A stretch of DNA of 64,000 bases from Alphaproteobacteria bacterium (GTDB lineage Bacteria; Pseudomonadota; Alphaproteobacteria; Bin95): NCBI GenBank assembly GCA_964291285.2, contig OZ219788.1, positions 352,001-416,000 of the forward strand, written 5' to 3'. The notes beneath the pieces were generated by a model. That model was not told the DNA's origin. It saw only the letters and a list, made by a program, of their open reading frames with translations, and did not search any database. The position numbers and the translations under genes are program-made. Below are positions 17,205-48,817 of the stretch, one piece after another. Position 1 is the first letter of the stretch; the number at the start of each line of letters is the position of its first letter.

Positions 17205-18281
17205 TCAGGCCGCCCGGATCCGGGTCCAGGCCGCTTCGTAGAGCCGGGCGGTCTCCTCGCCCCGGTAGAGCGCCGGCTCGCAGGCCGCCAGCGTCTCTTC
17301 CGTCGGGAAGATGCCCGGATTGCCCGTGTAGTCCGCCGGCAGCAGCGCCTTGGCGGCGGCATTGGGCGTGGCGTAGCGGATCGCCTCCGCAATGGCCGCG
17401 CCCGCCTCGGCCTCCAGGATGAAATTGATGAAGGCGTGCGCGTTTTCGGGATGCGGCGCGCCCCGCGGGATGGCGAGCGTATCCTGCCACAGGATCGACC
17501 CCTCGCGCGGCACGACATAGGAGAGGTCGTCGTCCTCCGCCATCGCCTGCAGCATGTCGCCGTTCCATTCCATCGCGATGTCCACCTCGCCGGAGAGCAG
17601 CAGGTCCTGCCCGTTGTCCGGCGCGAACAGCCTGAGATGCGGCTTCTGCGCGACGATCAGCTTTTCGGCCGCCCCGACGATCTCCGGATCGGCCGTGTTG
17701 AGCGGATGGCCCATATATTTGAAGGCCGCGCCCAGCACTGTGCCCGCCTCGCTCAGCAGCGCGCAGCGCCCGCTGTAGCGGTCGGAGTCGTAGAGCCAGC
17801 GCCAGCTGTCGGGCACGCCGTCGCAGCGGGACTTGCGGTAGCCGATCCCCATCGTGCCCCACATATAGGGGATGGAGTGGCGCCGGCCGGGGTCGAAGGC
17901 GGCGTCCCGGAAGGCCGGCTCGATATTCGCCATGTTGGGAATCGCCGCATGGTCGAGCGGCATGAGCATGCCGGCGGCGATCATGCGCTCGACGAAATCG
18001 TTGGTCGGCACGACCACGTCGTAGCCGGGATTGCCGTCCTTCAGCGTTGCGAACAGCTCGTCATTGTCCGCATAGAGGTCCATCCGGACCGCGATGCCGG
18101 TCAGCGCCCTGAAATCCGCAAGCGTGGTCGCGCCGGTATAGGTGTCCCAGTTGTAGAAATTGAGCCTGGGCTCCTCGCCGGCGGGCGCCGCTCCCGGCAG
18201 GAAGGAGAGGCCCGCCGCCGCCGCGCCCGCGCCTGCGAGGAAGCGGCGGCGCGTCGGCCGGATTCCGAAAGCCGTGCGCAT
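17205..18281 (-). CDS. Polyamine ABC transporter substrate-binding protein (PotD/PotF-like), Tat signal
   Basis: TRRRFL signal, LNFYNWDTY, YDVVVPT, SIPYMWGTMGIGY, EWNGD. Confidence 0.93.
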   Translation of the reverse strand: MRTAFGIRPTRRRFLAGAGAAAAGLSFLPGAAPAGEEPRLNFYNWDTYTGATTLADFRALTGIAVRMDLYADNDELFATLKDGNPGYDVVVPTNDFVERMIAAGMLMPLDHAAIPNMANIEPAFRDAAFDPGRRHSIPYMWGTMGIGYRKSRCDGVPDSWRWLYDSDRYSGRCALLSEAGTVLGAAFKYMGHPLNTADPEIVGAAEKLIVAQKPHLRLFAPDNGQDLLLSGEVDIAMEWNGDMLQAMAEDDDLSYVVPREGSILWQDTLAIPRGAPHPENAHAFINFILEAEAGAAIAEAIRYATPNAAAKALLPADYTGNPGIFPTEETLAACEPALYRGEETARLYEAAWTRIRAA

Positions 18282-18480
18282 CGGCGCCTCCCTGGGCTTT
18301 CCGGGGCAGGATCCCGGCGAGTGTCGAGCCGGCGCGGGGAGAAGTCAAACGCCGGCGGGCGCCGCCCTGCCGACGGTCCCGGCCCCGACAGCGTCGCCCG
18401 CGACGTCGTGCCGGCCGCTGTCGCGCGCCGCGCCTTATACCACCCTTCGCGAGCCGGAGCCGGCGGCCGGCGGGACCCCC

Positions 18481-18744
18481 CGGAAATGTCATGGAATGTC
18501 ATGTTTCGTCATGCGGCCGGTCTCCGCCCCGGTCGTTCGCAAGGCATCGCAGCCTCCTTGGCCGAGCCATGGTCCCGGACGCCCCCGTTGCCGGAGGAGC
18601 GCCGCCCGCCCGCGCATAATGCGCGCCTGCCCGTGCGTGCGCGCCCGCCCGCGCGAGGCGGCGGGACCGGCCTCCCCACCGTGGATGTCATGGAATGTCA
18701 TGTTTCGTCATGGAGTCCTGCGGAAATGTCATGGAATGTCATGG
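18481..18744. repeat. Three clusters of 10-bp-period TGTCATG repeats (consensus CGGAAATGTCATGGAATGTCATGTTTCGTCATG)
   Basis: Seen at 18481-18513, 18685-18712 and 18721-18744; related copies at 47964-47981 and 48106-48120 on the opposite strand. Confidence 0.9.
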
Positions 18745-18855
18745 TCCGCTGTCGTCTCCGCCTCTGCGGGCCGGCGCGGCGCGGGCTTGGGCTGCGGGTG
18801 CGAGGCGCTCCGGCAGCATCGCCGCCAGTGCGGGGCGGGGGTCGGTTGCGGTCAT
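18739..18855 (-). CDS. Putative 38-aa peptide in the porin-divergent leader
   Basis: GGAGAGGAGAGACG-ATG; MTATDPRPALAAMLPERLAPAAQARAAPARRGGDDSGP*; conserved in copy 2. Confidence 0.4.
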   Translation of the reverse strand: MTATDPRPALAAMLPERLAPAAQARAAPARRGGDDSGP

Positions 18856-19066
18856 CGTCTCTCCTCTCCGACGGGGAGCGGGTCCCTGTTTCGCGCGTAT
18901 CCCGCGCGGGCGCGTGTCGGCGCCGGCGCGGTTCGCGCGCCTGATTGCGCGCGCGAGGCGGAGGACGCACGTCTCCCGTCGGCTTCTCACGGGTTTTCAG
19001 AAACTGGCGCCGCCCGGCCGCGCGGCACCCGGGGACGCGGCTCCGGAGTCCGCTTCCCTGGGGACC

Positions 19067-19093
19067 ATCATACCACAATCCGCCAGATGTCAA
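19067..19093 (-). promoter_or_regulatory. Sigma70-like promoter directed away from the porin
   Basis: TTGACA-15 bp-TATGAT with a TG extended -10 and an AT-rich upstream tract; identical in copy 2. The spacer is short. Confidence 0.55.
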
Positions 19094-19366
19094 GATCAAA
19101 ACACGAATAAAAATCAAACTTATCCGAAATTGTTCATATTCCGCTTGCGGGAGAGGCAGGGAGAGGGCCTTGCGGACGGTCCTTCCTCCGGCCCGGGGAC
19201 GCCGGCGCGGACTCCCCACCGGCGGGCGTGACCTGTTGCAGCGGCGCCACACATTCGCCAATCAGATAATTCCGTCCCTGAAAATCGGAAAATCAAGCCT
19301 TTTGCCGCCGCAAAACCGCAACAGGAATTATGGGCAATTTCAGCAGAACGTCCCGCAACGGGGATT

Positions 19367-20641
19367 ATGAGAAATTTCCTCATGACGACCGCAGCCGCCG
19401 GCGCTCTGGCATGCGCCGGAGTCATGGCGGCGGGGCCGGCTTCGGCGGCTGACATGTTGTCGGTCGGCGTCGGCGGTTACATGGAACAGTGGGTGGGCTA
19501 CGCCAACCGCGACGACAGCGGCGCGGACGGCGGCATCACCGTGCAGTCGGACTCGGAAATCTATTTCCAGGGTTCGCTGGAAGCCGACAGCGGGCTCAAG
19601 TTCACGGTCCATGTGCAGCTTGAGGCCAACAACGACGAAGACAAGATCGGGGACGACACCCCCGAAAACACCGAGATCGACGAGTCGTTCGCGCGCATGA
19701 GCGGCGAGTTCGGCACGATCGAGATCGGCCAGCGCGACCCGATCCATGCGCGCACGCATTATGCGGCGGCGTTCGGCGCGGGCGTCGGCCTGAACGCCGG
19801 CGACACGCAGAAGTGGATCCCGGGCGCCTATCTGGAGACCGCCGGCTGGACGATCCCGGGCGACGACCTGGGCGTGATCTACATCACCCCGCGCGTGAAC
19901 GGCGTGCAGGTGGGCGTGTCCTACCACCCGGACTCGACGAACGAGGACGCCCCGACCAGGGCGCCGGAAAACAACGACAACGCCGCCATGGCCGCGGGCA
20001 TCAACTTCAACCACACCATCGGCGATATGTCGGTCAAGGTCTCACTGGGGCATGTCAACGTCTCGAACCCCGGCAGCCTGTCGTACAACGCGGAGAACTC
20101 CGCCGCCGATAGCGACGACATGATGAAGGGCTTCGAGGACAAGACCTTCACCAATGCGGGCCTGTCGATCGGCATGGGCGCGTTCACCTTCCAGGCCTCC
20201 TACGCCACCCGCGACGACGGCGGCTATGTGGCGGAGTGCTGGACCGGTGCCGGCACGGAGGATGCGGCCCTAGTTGACTGCGGCAAACTGCCGGAGGACT
20301 TGGCCCATACGGCGGCCGACGAAGCGACCGGTGTTTACCCGAACATTGACCCCGATGGTGCTAATACTCCCATCAACGGCATCCTCGCCGTCGAGGACAA
20401 GTCGGGCCAGCACGACACCTTCGCCATCGGCATCGGCTACACGGACGGCCCGATGTCGGTGAGCATCGGCCACATGGTCCGCGATGCCGAGAACGGCGAC
20501 GAGCGGACCGCGACCATGGTCTCGGCCGGCTACAAGCTGGCGCCGGGCGTGGACTGGAAGACCTCGATCTTCGGCGTCGAGGACACCGCCAAGGGCACGG
20601 AAGGCACCGCCTTCGTGACCGGCATCGACATCCACTTCTAG
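19367..20641 (+). CDS. Gram-negative porin (alphaproteobacterial type), 424 aa
   Basis: Signal peptide, DSEIYFQGS..DSGLKF.VHVQLE, IDESFARMSGEFG.IEIG, YITPRVNG, terminal Phe. Confidence 0.93.
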   Translation: MRNFLMTTAAAGALACAGVMAAGPASAADMLSVGVGGYMEQWVGYANRDDSGADGGITVQSDSEIYFQGSLEADSGLKFTVHVQLEANNDEDKIGDDTPENTEIDESFARMSGEFGTIEIGQRDPIHARTHYAAAFGAGVGLNAGDTQKWIPGAYLETAGWTIPGDDLGVIYITPRVNGVQVGVSYHPDSTNEDAPTRAPENNDNAAMAAGINFNHTIGDMSVKVSLGHVNVSNPGSLSYNAENSAADSDDMMKGFEDKTFTNAGLSIGMGAFTFQASYATRDDGGYVAECWTGAGTEDAALVDCGKLPEDLAHTAADEATGVYPNIDPDGANTPINGILAVEDKSGQHDTFAIGIGYTDGPMSVSIGHMVRDAENGDERTATMVSAGYKLAPGVDWKTSIFGVEDTAKGTEGTAFVTGIDIHF

Positions 20642-45711: not shown

Positions 45712-47304
45712 TCAGAAGCTGAGCGTGATGCCGGTGACGAAGGCGGTGCCTTCGGCGTCGGTCTCGTCGTCAGCCATCGTGGTCGCGTCGTCCGTGCCGG
45801 TATTGTCCTCGACCTGGAAGATCGAGGTCTTCCACGCCACGCCCGGCGCCAGCGTGTAGCTGCCGGAGAGCATGGTGGCGTTGCGCTCCGTGCCGGCGTC
45901 GGTCTCATGGGTCATGTGGCCGAGGCTGATCGACATCGGGCCGTCCGTGTAGGTGACGCTCACGCCCCAGACGTCGAAGTCCTTCGACGTGTCGCTCACG
46001 ACCGCCTCGGTGTGCTCGGCAACGAGATTGTTCGCCATAGCGTCGTTGCAGGCGCCATCGCCGGTTGCGGGGCAACGCGGATCGTCCATCTTCTTGTCGG
46101 CCCAGTTGAATTCGGCGCCGCTGACAAATAGCGCGCCAGCGGCCAGATCCGCTGTACCCTTCTTGTACGCTTTGCGGCCGACATCAGCGAGCGCAGATTT
46201 CAAGGCCGCTGCGGTAGTTGCGACATCGCCCGCGTCGGTGGCGGTATTGCTACCCACAGCATACATGATCGGCGTCTTCTGGACCTTGTAGGCGCCGCCG
46301 TCGGAGGTGGCGTAGGCAACGTTGAACTTGAACGCGCCGAAGCTGACGCCCACGCCGGCATTGGTGTAGGTCGCGTCGTCGGCCAGCTTCGACTTGGTCG
46401 TAGCCGGGATGAAATGCAGCTCGTTCTGGCCGGCGGCGTCGACGTCAGTTGCACCGACGATCGTCGTGCCTTTCTCATGACCCCCGCTATCAAGCGCCTT
46501 CCGGTCGCAGGCGGTGTTGGCCAACGCGCTGTACTTTGCCGATCCGCCATCGACGTTCTTCGTCGTCAGGCCGCACAGGTGGTTGCGCCCGGAGGCGTCG
46601 ACCATCTGTTCGCCCGTCTGGCTCCGGCTGCGGTGGCCGAGCGAGAAGGTGACGGCCATGTCGCCGACTTCCTGGCTGAAATTGACGGCCGCGCCCCAGG
46701 AGGCGTCGTCATTGCCCTTGGGCGCGCTGGTGACGCCGCTCTCGTTGGTGGAGTCGGGCGCGTAGGACACGCCGATCTGGAGGCCGGAGATGCGCGGCGA
46801 GATGTAGTTCAGCTTCACGCTGTCGCCGCCGCCTGCCGTGCCGGCATGGCCCGCGGTCTCGAGATAGGCGCCCGGAATCCACTTCTGCGTGTCGCCGGAG
46901 GTGATGCCCACGCCGACATCGCTGATGCCGGAGTGCATCCGCACCATCGCGTGGTCGCGCGCGCCGAACTCGATCTGGCCGAACTCGCCGCTGACGCGGG
47001 CGAAGGATTCGTCGATTTCCGCCGCCTTGTCCCCGTTCTGGTTGCCTTCGAGCTCGACATGGATGGTGTATTTCAGGCCCATGTCGGACTCCAGCGAGCC
47101 CTTGAAGTGGACCTCGCTGTCCGACTGGGTGTCCCAGCCGCCTTCCGCGCCGGCATCGTCGCGGTTGGCGTAGCCGAACCACTGCTGCATGTAGCCGCCG
47201 ACGCCGACCGACAACATGTCAGCCGCCGAAGCCGGCCCCGCCGCCATGACTCCGGCGCATGCCAGAGCGCCGGCAGCTGCGGTCGTCATGAGGAAATTTC
47301 TCAT
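45712..47304 (-). CDS. Gram-negative porin paralogue, 530 aa, with two large inserted loops
   Basis: Starts MRNFLMTTAAAGALACAG exactly as porin 1; shares GDTQKWIPGAYLETAG and LAPGV.WKTSIF; terminal Phe. Confidence 0.93.
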   Translation of the reverse strand: MRNFLMTTAAAGALACAGVMAAGPASAADMLSVGVGGYMQQWFGYANRDDAGAEGGWDTQSDSEVHFKGSLESDMGLKYTIHVELEGNQNGDKAAEIDESFARVSGEFGQIEFGARDHAMVRMHSGISDVGVGITSGDTQKWIPGAYLETAGHAGTAGGGDSVKLNYISPRISGLQIGVSYAPDSTNESGVTSAPKGNDDASWGAAVNFSQEVGDMAVTFSLGHRSRSQTGEQMVDASGRNHLCGLTTKNVDGGSAKYSALANTACDRKALDSGGHEKGTTIVGATDVDAAGQNELHFIPATTKSKLADDATYTNAGVGVSFGAFKFNVAYATSDGGAYKVQKTPIMYAVGSNTATDAGDVATTAAALKSALADVGRKAYKKGTADLAAGALFVSGAEFNWADKKMDDPRCPATGDGACNDAMANNLVAEHTEAVVSDTSKDFDVWGVSVTYTDGPMSISLGHMTHETDAGTERNATMLSGSYTLAPGVAWKTSIFQVEDNTGTDDATTMADDETDAEGTAFVTGITLSF

Positions 47305-47623
47305 AATCCCCGTTGCGGGACGTTCTGCTGAAATTGCCCATAATTCCTGTTGCGGTTTTGCGGCGGCAAAAGGCTTGATTTTCCGATTTTCAGGGACGGA
47401 ATTATCTGATCGGCAAATGTGTGGCGCCGCTGCAACAGTGCTCGTCGGCCGGTGGGGAGTCCGCGCCGGCGTCCGGGCCGGAGGAAGGACCGTCCGCAAG
47501 GTCCTCTCCCTGCCTCTCCCGCAGGCGGGAGAGGAGGCTTCAGGGCGCGCGCCTTTTCCTCCTCCCTCGCAAGCGGAATATGAACAATTTCGGATAAGTT
47601 TGATTTTTATTCGTGTTTTGATC

Positions 47624-47650
47624 TTGACATCTGGCGGATTGTGGTATGAT
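47624..47650 (+). promoter_or_regulatory. Sigma70-like promoter divergent from porin 2
   Basis: TTGACA (47624) and TATGAT (47645); identical to copy 1. Confidence 0.55.
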
Positions 47651-47852
47651 GGTCCCCAGGGAAGCGGCATCCGGAGCCGCGTCCCCGGTGCTGCGCAGCG
47701 CCAGTTTCTGAAAACCCGCGAGAAGCCGACGGGAGACGTGCGTCCTGCGTCTCGCGCGCGCAATCAGGCGCGCGAACCGCGCCGGCGCCGACACGCGCCC
47801 GCGCGGGATACGCGCGAAACAGGGACCCGCTCCCCGTCGGAGAGGAGAGACG

Positions 47853-47969
47853 ATGACCGCAACCGACCCCCGCCCCGCACTGGCGGCGATGCTGCCGGAG
47901 CGCCTCGCACCCGCAGCCGAAGCCCGCGCCGCGCCGGCCCGCAGAGGCGGAGACGGCAGCGGGCCATGA
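47853..47969 (+). CDS. Putative 38-aa peptide (copy 2)
   Basis: Strong RBS; MTATDPRPALAAMLPERLAPAAEARAAPARRGGDGSGP*. Confidence 0.4.
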   Translation: MTATDPRPALAAMLPERLAPAAEARAAPARRGGDGSGP

Positions 47970-48126
47970 CATTCCATGACACTCTCGTCAGTCCCCGCCC
48001 CCGAGCCCTGCCGGATTCGTACATCTCCGGCGTTGGCTTCGCATCGCACGGCCCTCAACCGTCAGCCCGGCCCCCGGGCCGGGCTGACGAAGGGGGTGCA
48101 GCGGACCATGACATTTCCGCAGGGCC

Positions 48127-48812
48127 TGGAGTGGGCCCCTGGTCTCGGACAGTTTTGTTGTAGGAAATTGACAGGTGCGCGGTCATTGGAAGGATCGACG
48201 CCGATGAGGAAGCACCGCACGCACAGCATGGCCTTCAAGCGCCAGGTCGTTGAGGAGTATCTGGCAGGCGAGACGTTTTACGGTCTGGCCCGCCGTCATG
48301 ACCTGTCTCGCACCCTGATCCGGCTGTGGCTGGAGAAATACGAGGCCGGCGCCTTCGATGAGGAGGCCGAGGCGGCTGACACGCTCCGGGCGTATGAGGC
48401 CCGGATCGCGACGCTCGAACGGCTGGTCGGCCGGCAGGCCGCGGAGCTGGAGTTCCTAAAGGGGGCTTTGCGGCAAGGACGGCGGTCGAGGCGCGCGCCC
48501 ATGTCCGTGATCGCCGGCCCCGAGGCCTCTCCGTCGCCGAAGGATGCCGACTGATGGGGATCGCGCGCTCCACCTGTTACCGCGAGCCGCAGAGCCCGGT
48601 CGACGACACCGCCCTGGTCGAGGCGATGCACGAGATCAAGGACGAGTTCGAGGCCTATGGCTGGCGGCGCATGCAGGCGGAACTTCGCCACCGGGGCCGG
48701 ACCGTCAACCACAAGAAGGTCAGGCGGCTGATGCGCGAACACGCCCTGCAGCCGCCGCGCAAGCGCCGCTTTGTCGCCACCACGGACAGCGGCCACGACG
48801 GGCCGGTCTTCC
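48127..48812 (+). mobile_element. IS3-family element, truncated by the IS21 transposon
   Basis: Probable left end TGGAGTGGGCCCCTGGTCTCGGACAG; orfA and partial orfB; no continuation after 54562. Confidence 0.8.
48204..48554 (+). CDS. IS3 transposase OrfA
   Basis: HSMAFKRQVVEEYLAG...LARRHDLSRTLIRLW HTH and a coiled coil LERLVGRQ. Confidence 0.88.
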   Translation: MRKHRTHSMAFKRQVVEEYLAGETFYGLARRHDLSRTLIRLWLEKYEAGAFDEEAEAADTLRAYEARIATLERLVGRQAAELEFLKGALRQGRRSRRAPMSVIAGPEASPSPKDAD

Positions 48813-48817
48813 TGTAG
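48554..48817 (+). pseudogene. IS3 OrfB N-terminal fragment
   Basis: YGWRRM..L...VNHKKVRRLMREHAL, TTDSGH; cut at 48812. Confidence 0.85.

Follow-up and report, generated by a model that had tools for sequence, protein, structure and literature searches.

Phage satellites of the Staphylococcus aureus pathogenicity island (SaPI) and phage-inducible chromosomal island (PICI) type carry their own small terminase and pac site and use a packaging motor from outside; such satellites are 10-15-kb islands with integrase, repressor and replication genes, present in one or few copies. Short direct repeats at one-helical-turn spacing also make up the parC array of plasmid R1, which is bound by ParR. In SPP1, as set out in passages of PMC4737164, the terminase gene itself is physically linked to groups of short direct repeats. 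Here we describe two related modules, copy 1 and copy 2, in a stretch of 64,000 nucleotides from an alphaproteobacterium (the window: positions 352,001 to 416,000 of contig OZ219788.1, assembly GCA_964291285.2). In each, a promoter-like site is followed by a GC-rich leader, a 38-codon open reading frame (ORF) and heptamers of the CATGACA type phased at 10 bp. The modules are best read as decayed, non-autonomous members of a dispersed cassette family that is found in most species of the genus and whose intact members encode a terminase-like protein.

The genome that holds the window (G000) comprises 6.13 Mb in five contigs with 68% GC and is rated 100% complete. BLAST of the module against this genome returned 163 matching pieces at 104 loci, and the leader core alone occurs at 94 loci rather than at the two of the window only. 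The double heptamer, a 17-mer (TGTCATGGAATGTCATG), has 159 genome matches at up to two mismatches versus 0 for a reversed control; in the window itself there are 4 such matches versus 0.00 expected from 100 shuffles. Heptamer arrays are spread over all five contigs. For 83 of the 94 leader cores a heptamer pair lies 178-1252 bp downstream on the same strand, the longer gaps being copies split by insertion sequences (ISs), and a search of the 94 cores for a larger master element between leader and array found none, only IS-split copies. BLAST depth follows the repeated unit along the module. The porin side is two-copy in the genome, and depth rises in AT-rich sequence ~55 bp ahead of the -35 element (query position ~230), reaches its maximum of 92 matches in the leader core (GCGCGCAATCAGGCGCGCGAACCGCGCCGGCGCC) and drops to 1-2 about 20-40 nt past the last heptamer, with 14 in the 20-nt bin just beyond the array. 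A GGG..CC end motif accompanies 51 of 89 terminal arrays, versus a background of 4.6%. The copies are 73-93% alike and split into subfamilies with different ORFs downstream of a common leader; promoter-like sites are retained in all subfamilies, even where the promoter sequences differ. The preliminary description of this DNA had suggested a non-autonomous element, and this part of it stands, as the module is multi-copy and has longer, gene-bearing relatives in the same genome.

Ten copies are intact, each with a full-length gene for a protein of 329-336 aa. Homology among the ten begins at the AT-rich promoter region and ends just past the third heptamer, giving a unit of ~1.45 kb that is composed of an AT-rich sigma-70-like promoter, a 200-310-nt GC-rich leader, one gene, three CATGACA heptamers and the GGG..CC motif. 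The three heptamers, at 10-bp spacing, overlap the stop codon of the gene, and the protein ends in ...DHDKT. Residues 11-70 of the 329-aa protein match the Pfam family Terminase_2 (PF03592; E = 1.2e-10, 42.6 bits versus a cut-off of 26.1), which has 12 matches above cut-off in the genome, and the protein also matches phrog_51, a terminase small subunit family (E = 4.4e-12). With 16 relatives as input, AlphaFold gave a model that is confident over residues 11-110; it shows a helix-turn-helix and then long helices, with disorder across most of the acidic C-terminal half. The best solved structures found by Foldseek belong to the SF6/SPP1 small terminase G1P (2cmp, with 4zc3; DNA-binding domain/full chain), with 39% identity, a target TM-score of 0.82-0.85 and a probability of 1.0; the E-value is just 0.07 because the domain is small. 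Among the 120 listed of the 310 clusters found, two are named 'terminase small subunit', and no other name occurs in the sources. The ratio of nonsynonymous to synonymous substitution rates (dN/dS), taken over codons 1-200 in 44 paralog pairs, is 0.10-0.46, and the gene is therefore under purifying selection.

The intact copies stand alone among ordinary metabolic and housekeeping genes, and no phage genes were found within 6 kb of any of the ten, with no capsid, portal or integrase gene nearby. Four Pfam models of the large terminase (PF03237, PF03354, PF04466 and PF05876) gave 0 matches in the genome, and each of them has matches in control genomes. The 329-aa terminase-like protein is the largest cargo in the family and is not a known transposase.

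Gene and array are linked well beyond this genome. Among 186 candidate stretches from public genomes, 118 relatives of the protein were confirmed and 80 loci were kept, all from alphaproteobacterial metagenome-assembled genomes (MAGs) and many per genome; relatives of the lineage are recorded as sponge-associated MAGs. A phased heptamer pair lies within -60 to +450 nt of the stop codon at 57 of the 66 loci with enough downstream DNA, mostly at exactly -12 relative to the stop, versus 0 of 54 equal-sized upstream control windows, and four of the nine misses (L067, L068, L077 and L087) are ORFs shortened to 83-133 aa. With a helix-turn-helix gene linked to the repeats in this way, a protein-binding array is the best reading of the 10-bp phasing, as had been proposed from the phasing itself. 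The linkage persists in relatives with 64-70% identity over the N-terminal 110 residues (41-46% in full-length alignment), the leaders of which are quite different, and the C-terminal part of the protein is poorly conserved among relatives. Within the genus, 13 of 16 other species carry a 27-nt triple-heptamer pattern, with 6-113 copies each; outside the genus it was found in 0 of 24 genomes. A profile of the gene finds matches in six of ten sampled species, all six of which have 35-113 arrays, and the four sampled species without the gene have 0, 0, 0 and 6 arrays.

In two of the distant relatives (L086:131-4931 and L092:111-6523), the terminase-like gene and its heptamers are located between mnmE and mnmG (gidA). 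At the second of these loci, a parS-like palindrome (GTTTCATGTGAAAC) comes after the heptamers, and another short repeat (CGAAATGACGG) is present in several copies upstream of the gene (L092:2650-2790).

Most family copies have lost the terminase-like gene, and dozens of broken copies are found per genome. A second cargo gene (MTATDPRP..., 192-234 aa) has a dN/dS of 0.23-0.78; its protein has no Pfam family, no score above 0.83 and no family in the ESM Atlas, and a single weak PHROG match (E = 0.0022). The 38-aa ORF of the window is an internal-deletion remnant of this second gene, as it keeps the first ~22 residues and then jumps to the C-terminal end.

Cassettes are placed differently from genome to genome. 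Upstream of a tRNA gene, G000 has a cassette, G007 has 30 bp and G012 has a different insert; at another locus a cassette is common to G000, G007 and G012. Species thus differ in their insertions, some of which are old. The orientation of arrays to the next gene is random, with 41 co-oriented and 35 convergent. Some copies with differing promoters are 97% alike over stretches that begin within the leader and run as far as the last heptamer, and tracts bounded in this way within the cassette show exchange between copies.

From the observed anatomy, copy number, linkage of gene and array, purifying selection, presence or absence between species and mosaic exchange, we consider it reasonably probable that the whole is a selfish, once-mobile cassette family in which the heptamers are the binding site of the family's own protein. 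The terminase-like protein, probably oligomeric like phage small terminases, would bind the phased heptamers as its own recognition site, a pairing that would be analogous to a pac site linked to its terS gene. On this view, the family would have reached its intergenic sites as selfish DNA and would now be mostly old and homogenised by recombination; cutting and joining of DNA could come from a host enzyme or from the terminase of an incoming phage, or the activity could be lost. A protein and site paired in cis and trans would account for deletion derivatives that keep promoter, leader and heptamers without the gene.

Several points weigh against this interpretation. None of the cargo proteins was found to have a catalytic domain. 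Terminal inverted repeats were not seen, the two ends being the AT-rich promoter on one side and direct heptamers with GGG..CC on the other, and no clean target duplication was seen at the sole empty site (G007), which lies in fast-changing intergenic DNA where the exact junctions are unreadable. The second cargo gene and several tiny-ORF subfamilies have the same ends without a helix-turn-helix domain. Near-identical tracts that start and end inside the cassette show conversion rather than fresh insertion, and with copies only 73-93% alike and one insertion common to species, current activity is unproven. The genomes compared are kin and not independent, and the co-occurrence of gene and array among them is a matter of consistency, not a test. 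Finally, the isolated SF6 DNA-binding domain binds pac DNA weakly and non-specifically according to passages of PMC4737164, so that specificity of the cassette protein for the heptamers is not a given.

The leader was also considered as an RNA. The folding energy of the copy 1 leader, -112.8 kcal/mol, makes it only modestly more stable than shuffled sequences (z = -2.15; 3 of 200 shuffles are as stable). For 35 leaders from several genomes, RNAalifold predicts 23 pairs, arranged as a 5' hairpin plus a few small stems; six of these pairs have some double change, and the covariation term is -0.05 kcal/mol, that is, almost none; on 93 leader cores, alifold likewise yields weak structure with almost no covariation. 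The long-range helix within the leader attains a length of at least 8 bp in 19 of 56 copies; it carries a single G-C to A-U switch between two subfamilies and is missing from the others. Leader-like contigs are present in one metatranscriptome run (X23), which was compared, on contigs only, with three further runs of unspecified kind; small word shares in additional runs labelled sponge or coral played no part in the comparison. In the metatranscriptome and the three further runs alike, leader depth is ~100-fold or more relative to unique flanks, which neither demonstrates transcription nor rules it out, and contigs do not resolve RNA ends.

Other explanations must be set against a selfish cassette with its own binding site. 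One makes the cassette a packaging-signal hitch-hiker or decoy, a minimal terS-plus-pac unit dependent on an infecting pac-type phage, which we regard as unlikely. In this scheme the protein would recruit the phage large terminase to ~100 arrays, whereby host DNA would be packaged and transduced or phage packaging would be sabotaged. The protein does have the fold and family of a G1P-type small terminase, satellites with their own small terminase and pac are known, and with no resident large terminase by the four Pfam models in a genome rated as complete, the partner would be expected from outside. Repeats resembling a recognition site also lie in or beside the protein's own gene, as they do in SPP1 in the passages of PMC4737164. 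Packaging alone, however, does not add insertion sites to the chromosome, the intact copies have no capsid, portal or integrase genes near them, and no phage partner is known. In phage small terminases the C-terminal part meets the large subunit; in the cassette protein that part is poorly conserved and predicted to be disordered. We are similarly doubtful that a one-gene element has seeded ~100 pac-like signals on all replicons, by which phages would become high-frequency transducers or have their packaging starved by decoys; if true, such a packaging-signal element would be a new class, mobile or defensive, with neither transposase nor integrase. About as improbable is a domesticated host system, in which the proteins are nucleoid-associated or regulatory, the arrays are operator sites and the cassettes are retained because they benefit the host, portable promoters being one possible use. 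Such a role would fit the purifying selection on the gene, the promoter-like sites kept in all subfamilies despite their sequence differences and the fixed mnmE-mnmG position of the gene in two distant relatives, but orientation to downstream genes shows no bias (41 versus 35), most copies are without the gene, array copy number ranges from 0 to 113 between species, and ISs accumulate in the cassettes. Three species of the genus are array-free, and the two of them that were sampled are also gene-free.

Considerably less probable than either is that an IS3-type element includes the heptamer blocks and the end motif as parts of itself or mobilises them. Twenty motifs resembling the IS left inverted repeat (IRL) continue as an IS, and heptamers lie at most 45 nt upstream of 9 of these 20; solo IRL-like stubs also follow arrays, and the cassette end motif, GGAG.GGGCC, resembles the IS3 left inverted repeat. 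Set against this association, most arrays (~89 terminal triples) are without an adjacent IS, and the IRL-like motif faces away from the cassette and is therefore unusable as its inward-facing end. IS3-family elements often insert beside sequences that resemble their own ends, a habit that also counts against the by-product explanation, and the resemblance of the end motif may be what attracts the IS3 element. We give scarcely any credence to a transcribed repeat/spacer array, whether of the clustered regularly interspaced short palindromic repeats (CRISPR) kind or another processed noncoding RNA, which the preliminary description had put forward. Separated repeat clusters downstream of a promoter-like site and the leader-like contigs of the metatranscriptome run would suit such an array. 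The repeats are, however, 7-mers with a 10-bp period that overlap the stop codons of protein genes, and the 'spacers' are decayed copies or fragments of the family, not captured foreign DNA. The depth ratio of leader to flanks is about equal in the RNA run and the DNA runs, the Rfam 15 scan of the whole window at gathering score gave 0 matches, and the covariation term given above is near zero. A CRISPR-like array was rejected on its 7-nt repeats and its long gaps made of family members; no cas genes had been noted in the window by the preliminary description, and no dedicated cas search was made here.

Copy 1 lies on the minus strand of the window, and the coordinates of all listed features in both copies were checked by script. 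Its left end, where genome-wide homology starts, is an AT-rich upstream stretch with the promoter-like site (19062-19141), in which TTGACA forms the -35 element (19088-19093) and an extended -10 element is formed by TGn (TGG) and TATGAT (19067-19072). The spacer is 15 nt, and for this reason a promoter scan requiring a spacer of 16-18 nt returned 0 sites at copy 1; the same layout recurs in 37 promoter-region matches. The GC-rich leader of ~206 nt (18856-19061) contains a 5' hairpin and the conserved core, recognized from folding and genome matches, and the two long-range arms CCGACGGGAG (18973-18982) and CTCCCCGTCGG (18868-18878). A ribosome-binding site (GGAGAGGAGAG) is located upstream of the ATG (18855-18853) of the 38-codon ORF MTATDPRP... 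(18739-18855), the stop codon of which is supplied by the first heptamer. Eight heptamers follow in three clusters with a start-to-start distance of exactly 10 bp within each, read as CATGACA or CATGACG on the minus strand and as TGTCATG or CGTCATG on the plus strand. The right end of the first cassette consists of cluster III, with two units starting at 18727 and 18737 (18727-18743), and cluster II, with three units starting at 18686, 18696 and 18706 (18686-18712). Beyond an inter-cluster segment of 172 bp (18514-18685) lies the terminal triple heptamer (18487, 18497 and 18507; 18487-18513), and the terminal array together with the conserved GGG..CC end motif ~17 nt past it, placed by motif survey and sequence, spans 18469-18513.

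The promoter-like site, leader, arms, ribosome-binding site, 38-aa ORF and phased heptamers had all been described before and are present in both copies, but what had been said of the material between the repeats does not hold. The ~170 bp between the last two clusters of copy 1 had been called unique, and the 172-bp segment is matched 13-16 times in the genome. It reads as a minimal family member, in which the remnant of a hairpin (GCGCGCATTATGCGCG) is accompanied by an AAGGAGG ribosome-binding site and by a tiny ORF ending in heptamers; the 172-bp unit is tandemly repeated at C1:1183962-1184936. This segment and the 117-bp insert of copy 2 are both repeats found at many sites, the outcome that the preliminary description had itself named, for the insert, as refuting its interpretation. 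Gain of units by repeat duplication had also been proposed. Tandem units do exist, yet they are whole mini-elements, and unequal crossing-over, nested insertion and conversion are indistinguishable here.

On either side of copy 1 lie a co-oriented solute-binding protein gene downstream (17205-18281, minus strand; SBP_bac_8, E = 1e-27) and a divergent porin gene (19367-20641, plus strand; Porin_4, E = 1.6e-37), both outside the cassette. At 13 loci from other genomes, the DNA ahead of the solute-binding gene has only ~100 bp in common with the window and is array-free; no insertion junction can be read at the copy 1 locus because synteny is broken there in the other genomes.

Copy 2 as a whole occupies 47576-48126 in the opposite orientation, on the plus strand. 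The left end, promoter-like site and leader (47576-47852; TTGACA at 47624-47629 and TATGAT at 47645-47650) are followed by the 38-codon ORF (47853-47969) and paired heptamers (47965-47971 and 47975-47981). Next comes the extra, hairpin-bearing segment of 117 bp (47982-48098), and CAGCGGACCATGACA with a single heptamer (48107-48113) falls within 47982-48126. The presence of this segment in copy 2 had been correctly noted, but it is not specific to that copy: partial matches of 76-94% occur at ~20 further sites, several of which directly adjoin other arrays, and we read the segment as a 3' piece of another family member.

As at copy 1, a porin gene is divergent from copy 2 (45715-47292, minus strand; Porin_4, E = 1e-33) and serves as context only. 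The two porin paralogs are ~75-81% alike overall and become near-identical from the signal peptide through the upstream region into the cassette (window 18727-20052 and 46634-47981, differing by indels of 48 bp and 9 bp). This near-identical porin-cassette tract arose either by conversion or by partial duplication in recent time, and the exchange observed among other copies may explain it too.

An IS3-family element abuts copy 2 on the plus strand (48127-48817, the right limit being provisional), with its left inverted repeat (TGGAGTGGGCCCC) at 48127 and its orfA at 48204-48554 (HTH_Tnp_1, E = 7e-10). IS3-family elements are found repeatedly 4-6 nt from heptamer arrays throughout G000. Two other kinds of IS enter the cassettes themselves. 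An IS110-family element (DEDD_Tnp_IS110 and Transposase_20) splits the conserved leader in two family copies (L007:132-1262, corresponding to G000 C1:640069-641451, and G000 C3:1276372-1277719). A further IS with 19-bp ends (CCCGACTTCCGCAACTCGG; 50 and 49 end matches) and an ORF of ~498 aa is inserted at TTAG/CTAG of the leader hairpin in seven copies, for example at C3:685903, C3:941177 and C2:676485. A separate REP-like palindrome (GTCGCCCCGG...CCGGGGCGAC) is common in G000 directly flanking cassettes on both sides.

If the interpretation of a selfish cassette with its own binding site is correct, a small-terminase-type protein and its site can persist and multiply outside a phage as a one-gene cassette with gene-less derivatives. 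It would then be of interest whether dispersed pac-like sites shape transduction or phage resistance in unculturable symbionts, what cuts and joins cassette DNA, and why three kinds of IS home in on the cassettes. The family accounts for ~100 puzzling intergenic repeats per genome and breaks short-read assemblies of these genomes, and in annotation the cassette genes should not be labelled prophage remnants. Full-text literature searches turned up no description of orphan or stand-alone small terminases or of such repeats in sponge symbionts.

Compared with known repeat arrays, the cassettes resemble CRISPR loci in having repeat clusters downstream of a leader with a promoter-like site, but their repeat is 7 nt rather than 23-50 nt, and the gaps are 3 nt or whole family members. 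They share with iteron and parC arrays direct repeats of one helical turn that adjoin the gene of the presumed binding protein; unlike in those arrays, no partition ATPase or replication gene is linked, and the arrays are dispersed over five contigs. Repetitive extragenic palindromic (REP) sequences and bacterial interspersed mosaic elements (BIMEs) are similar as GC-rich, hairpin-bearing intergenic repeats of ~100 copies that are landing sites for IS110-type and other ISs, whereas the cassette units measure 170-1450 bp with a promoter and an ORF and are not 20-40-nt palindromes. A search for the REP-associated tyrosine transposase (RAYT; Y1, PF01797) gave 0 matches in this genome; among 17 genomes of the genus, 1 had a match. 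As in miniature inverted-repeat transposable elements (MITEs) and IS deletion derivatives, many short copies keep both ends and have lost the inner gene, and as for MITEs, longer gene-bearing relatives are found in the same genome and copies are intergenic and randomly oriented. In contrast to MITEs, the cassette ends are dissimilar and lack inverted repeats, and the parent gene is not a known transposase; no target duplication was seen at the one empty site, which lies in diverged intergenic DNA.

The closest parallels are with phage packaging modules. Like SaPI/PICI satellites, the cassette places a terS-like gene and a putative recognition site outside a phage genome, but it is 1.45 kb with one gene, occurs at ~100 loci and has no integrase nearby. 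The cassette protein shares with SPP1/SF6 G1P the N-terminal helix-turn-helix fold and the Pfam family Terminase_2, and as with G1P and pac in the passages of PMC4737164, its short direct repeats are tied to the terminase-type gene. It differs from SPP1/SF6 in that the protein is twice as long, with a predicted disordered acidic tail, the repeats cover the stop codon at the 3' end instead of lying at the 5' end, no large terminase (four Pfam models, across the genome) or phage genes lie alongside, and a genome holds 10 intact copies together with dozens of broken ones. We file the cassettes with the dispersed selfish repeat families that have non-autonomous derivatives, a known kind, among which they are unusual for having no recognisable transposase and for their terminase-like cargo.

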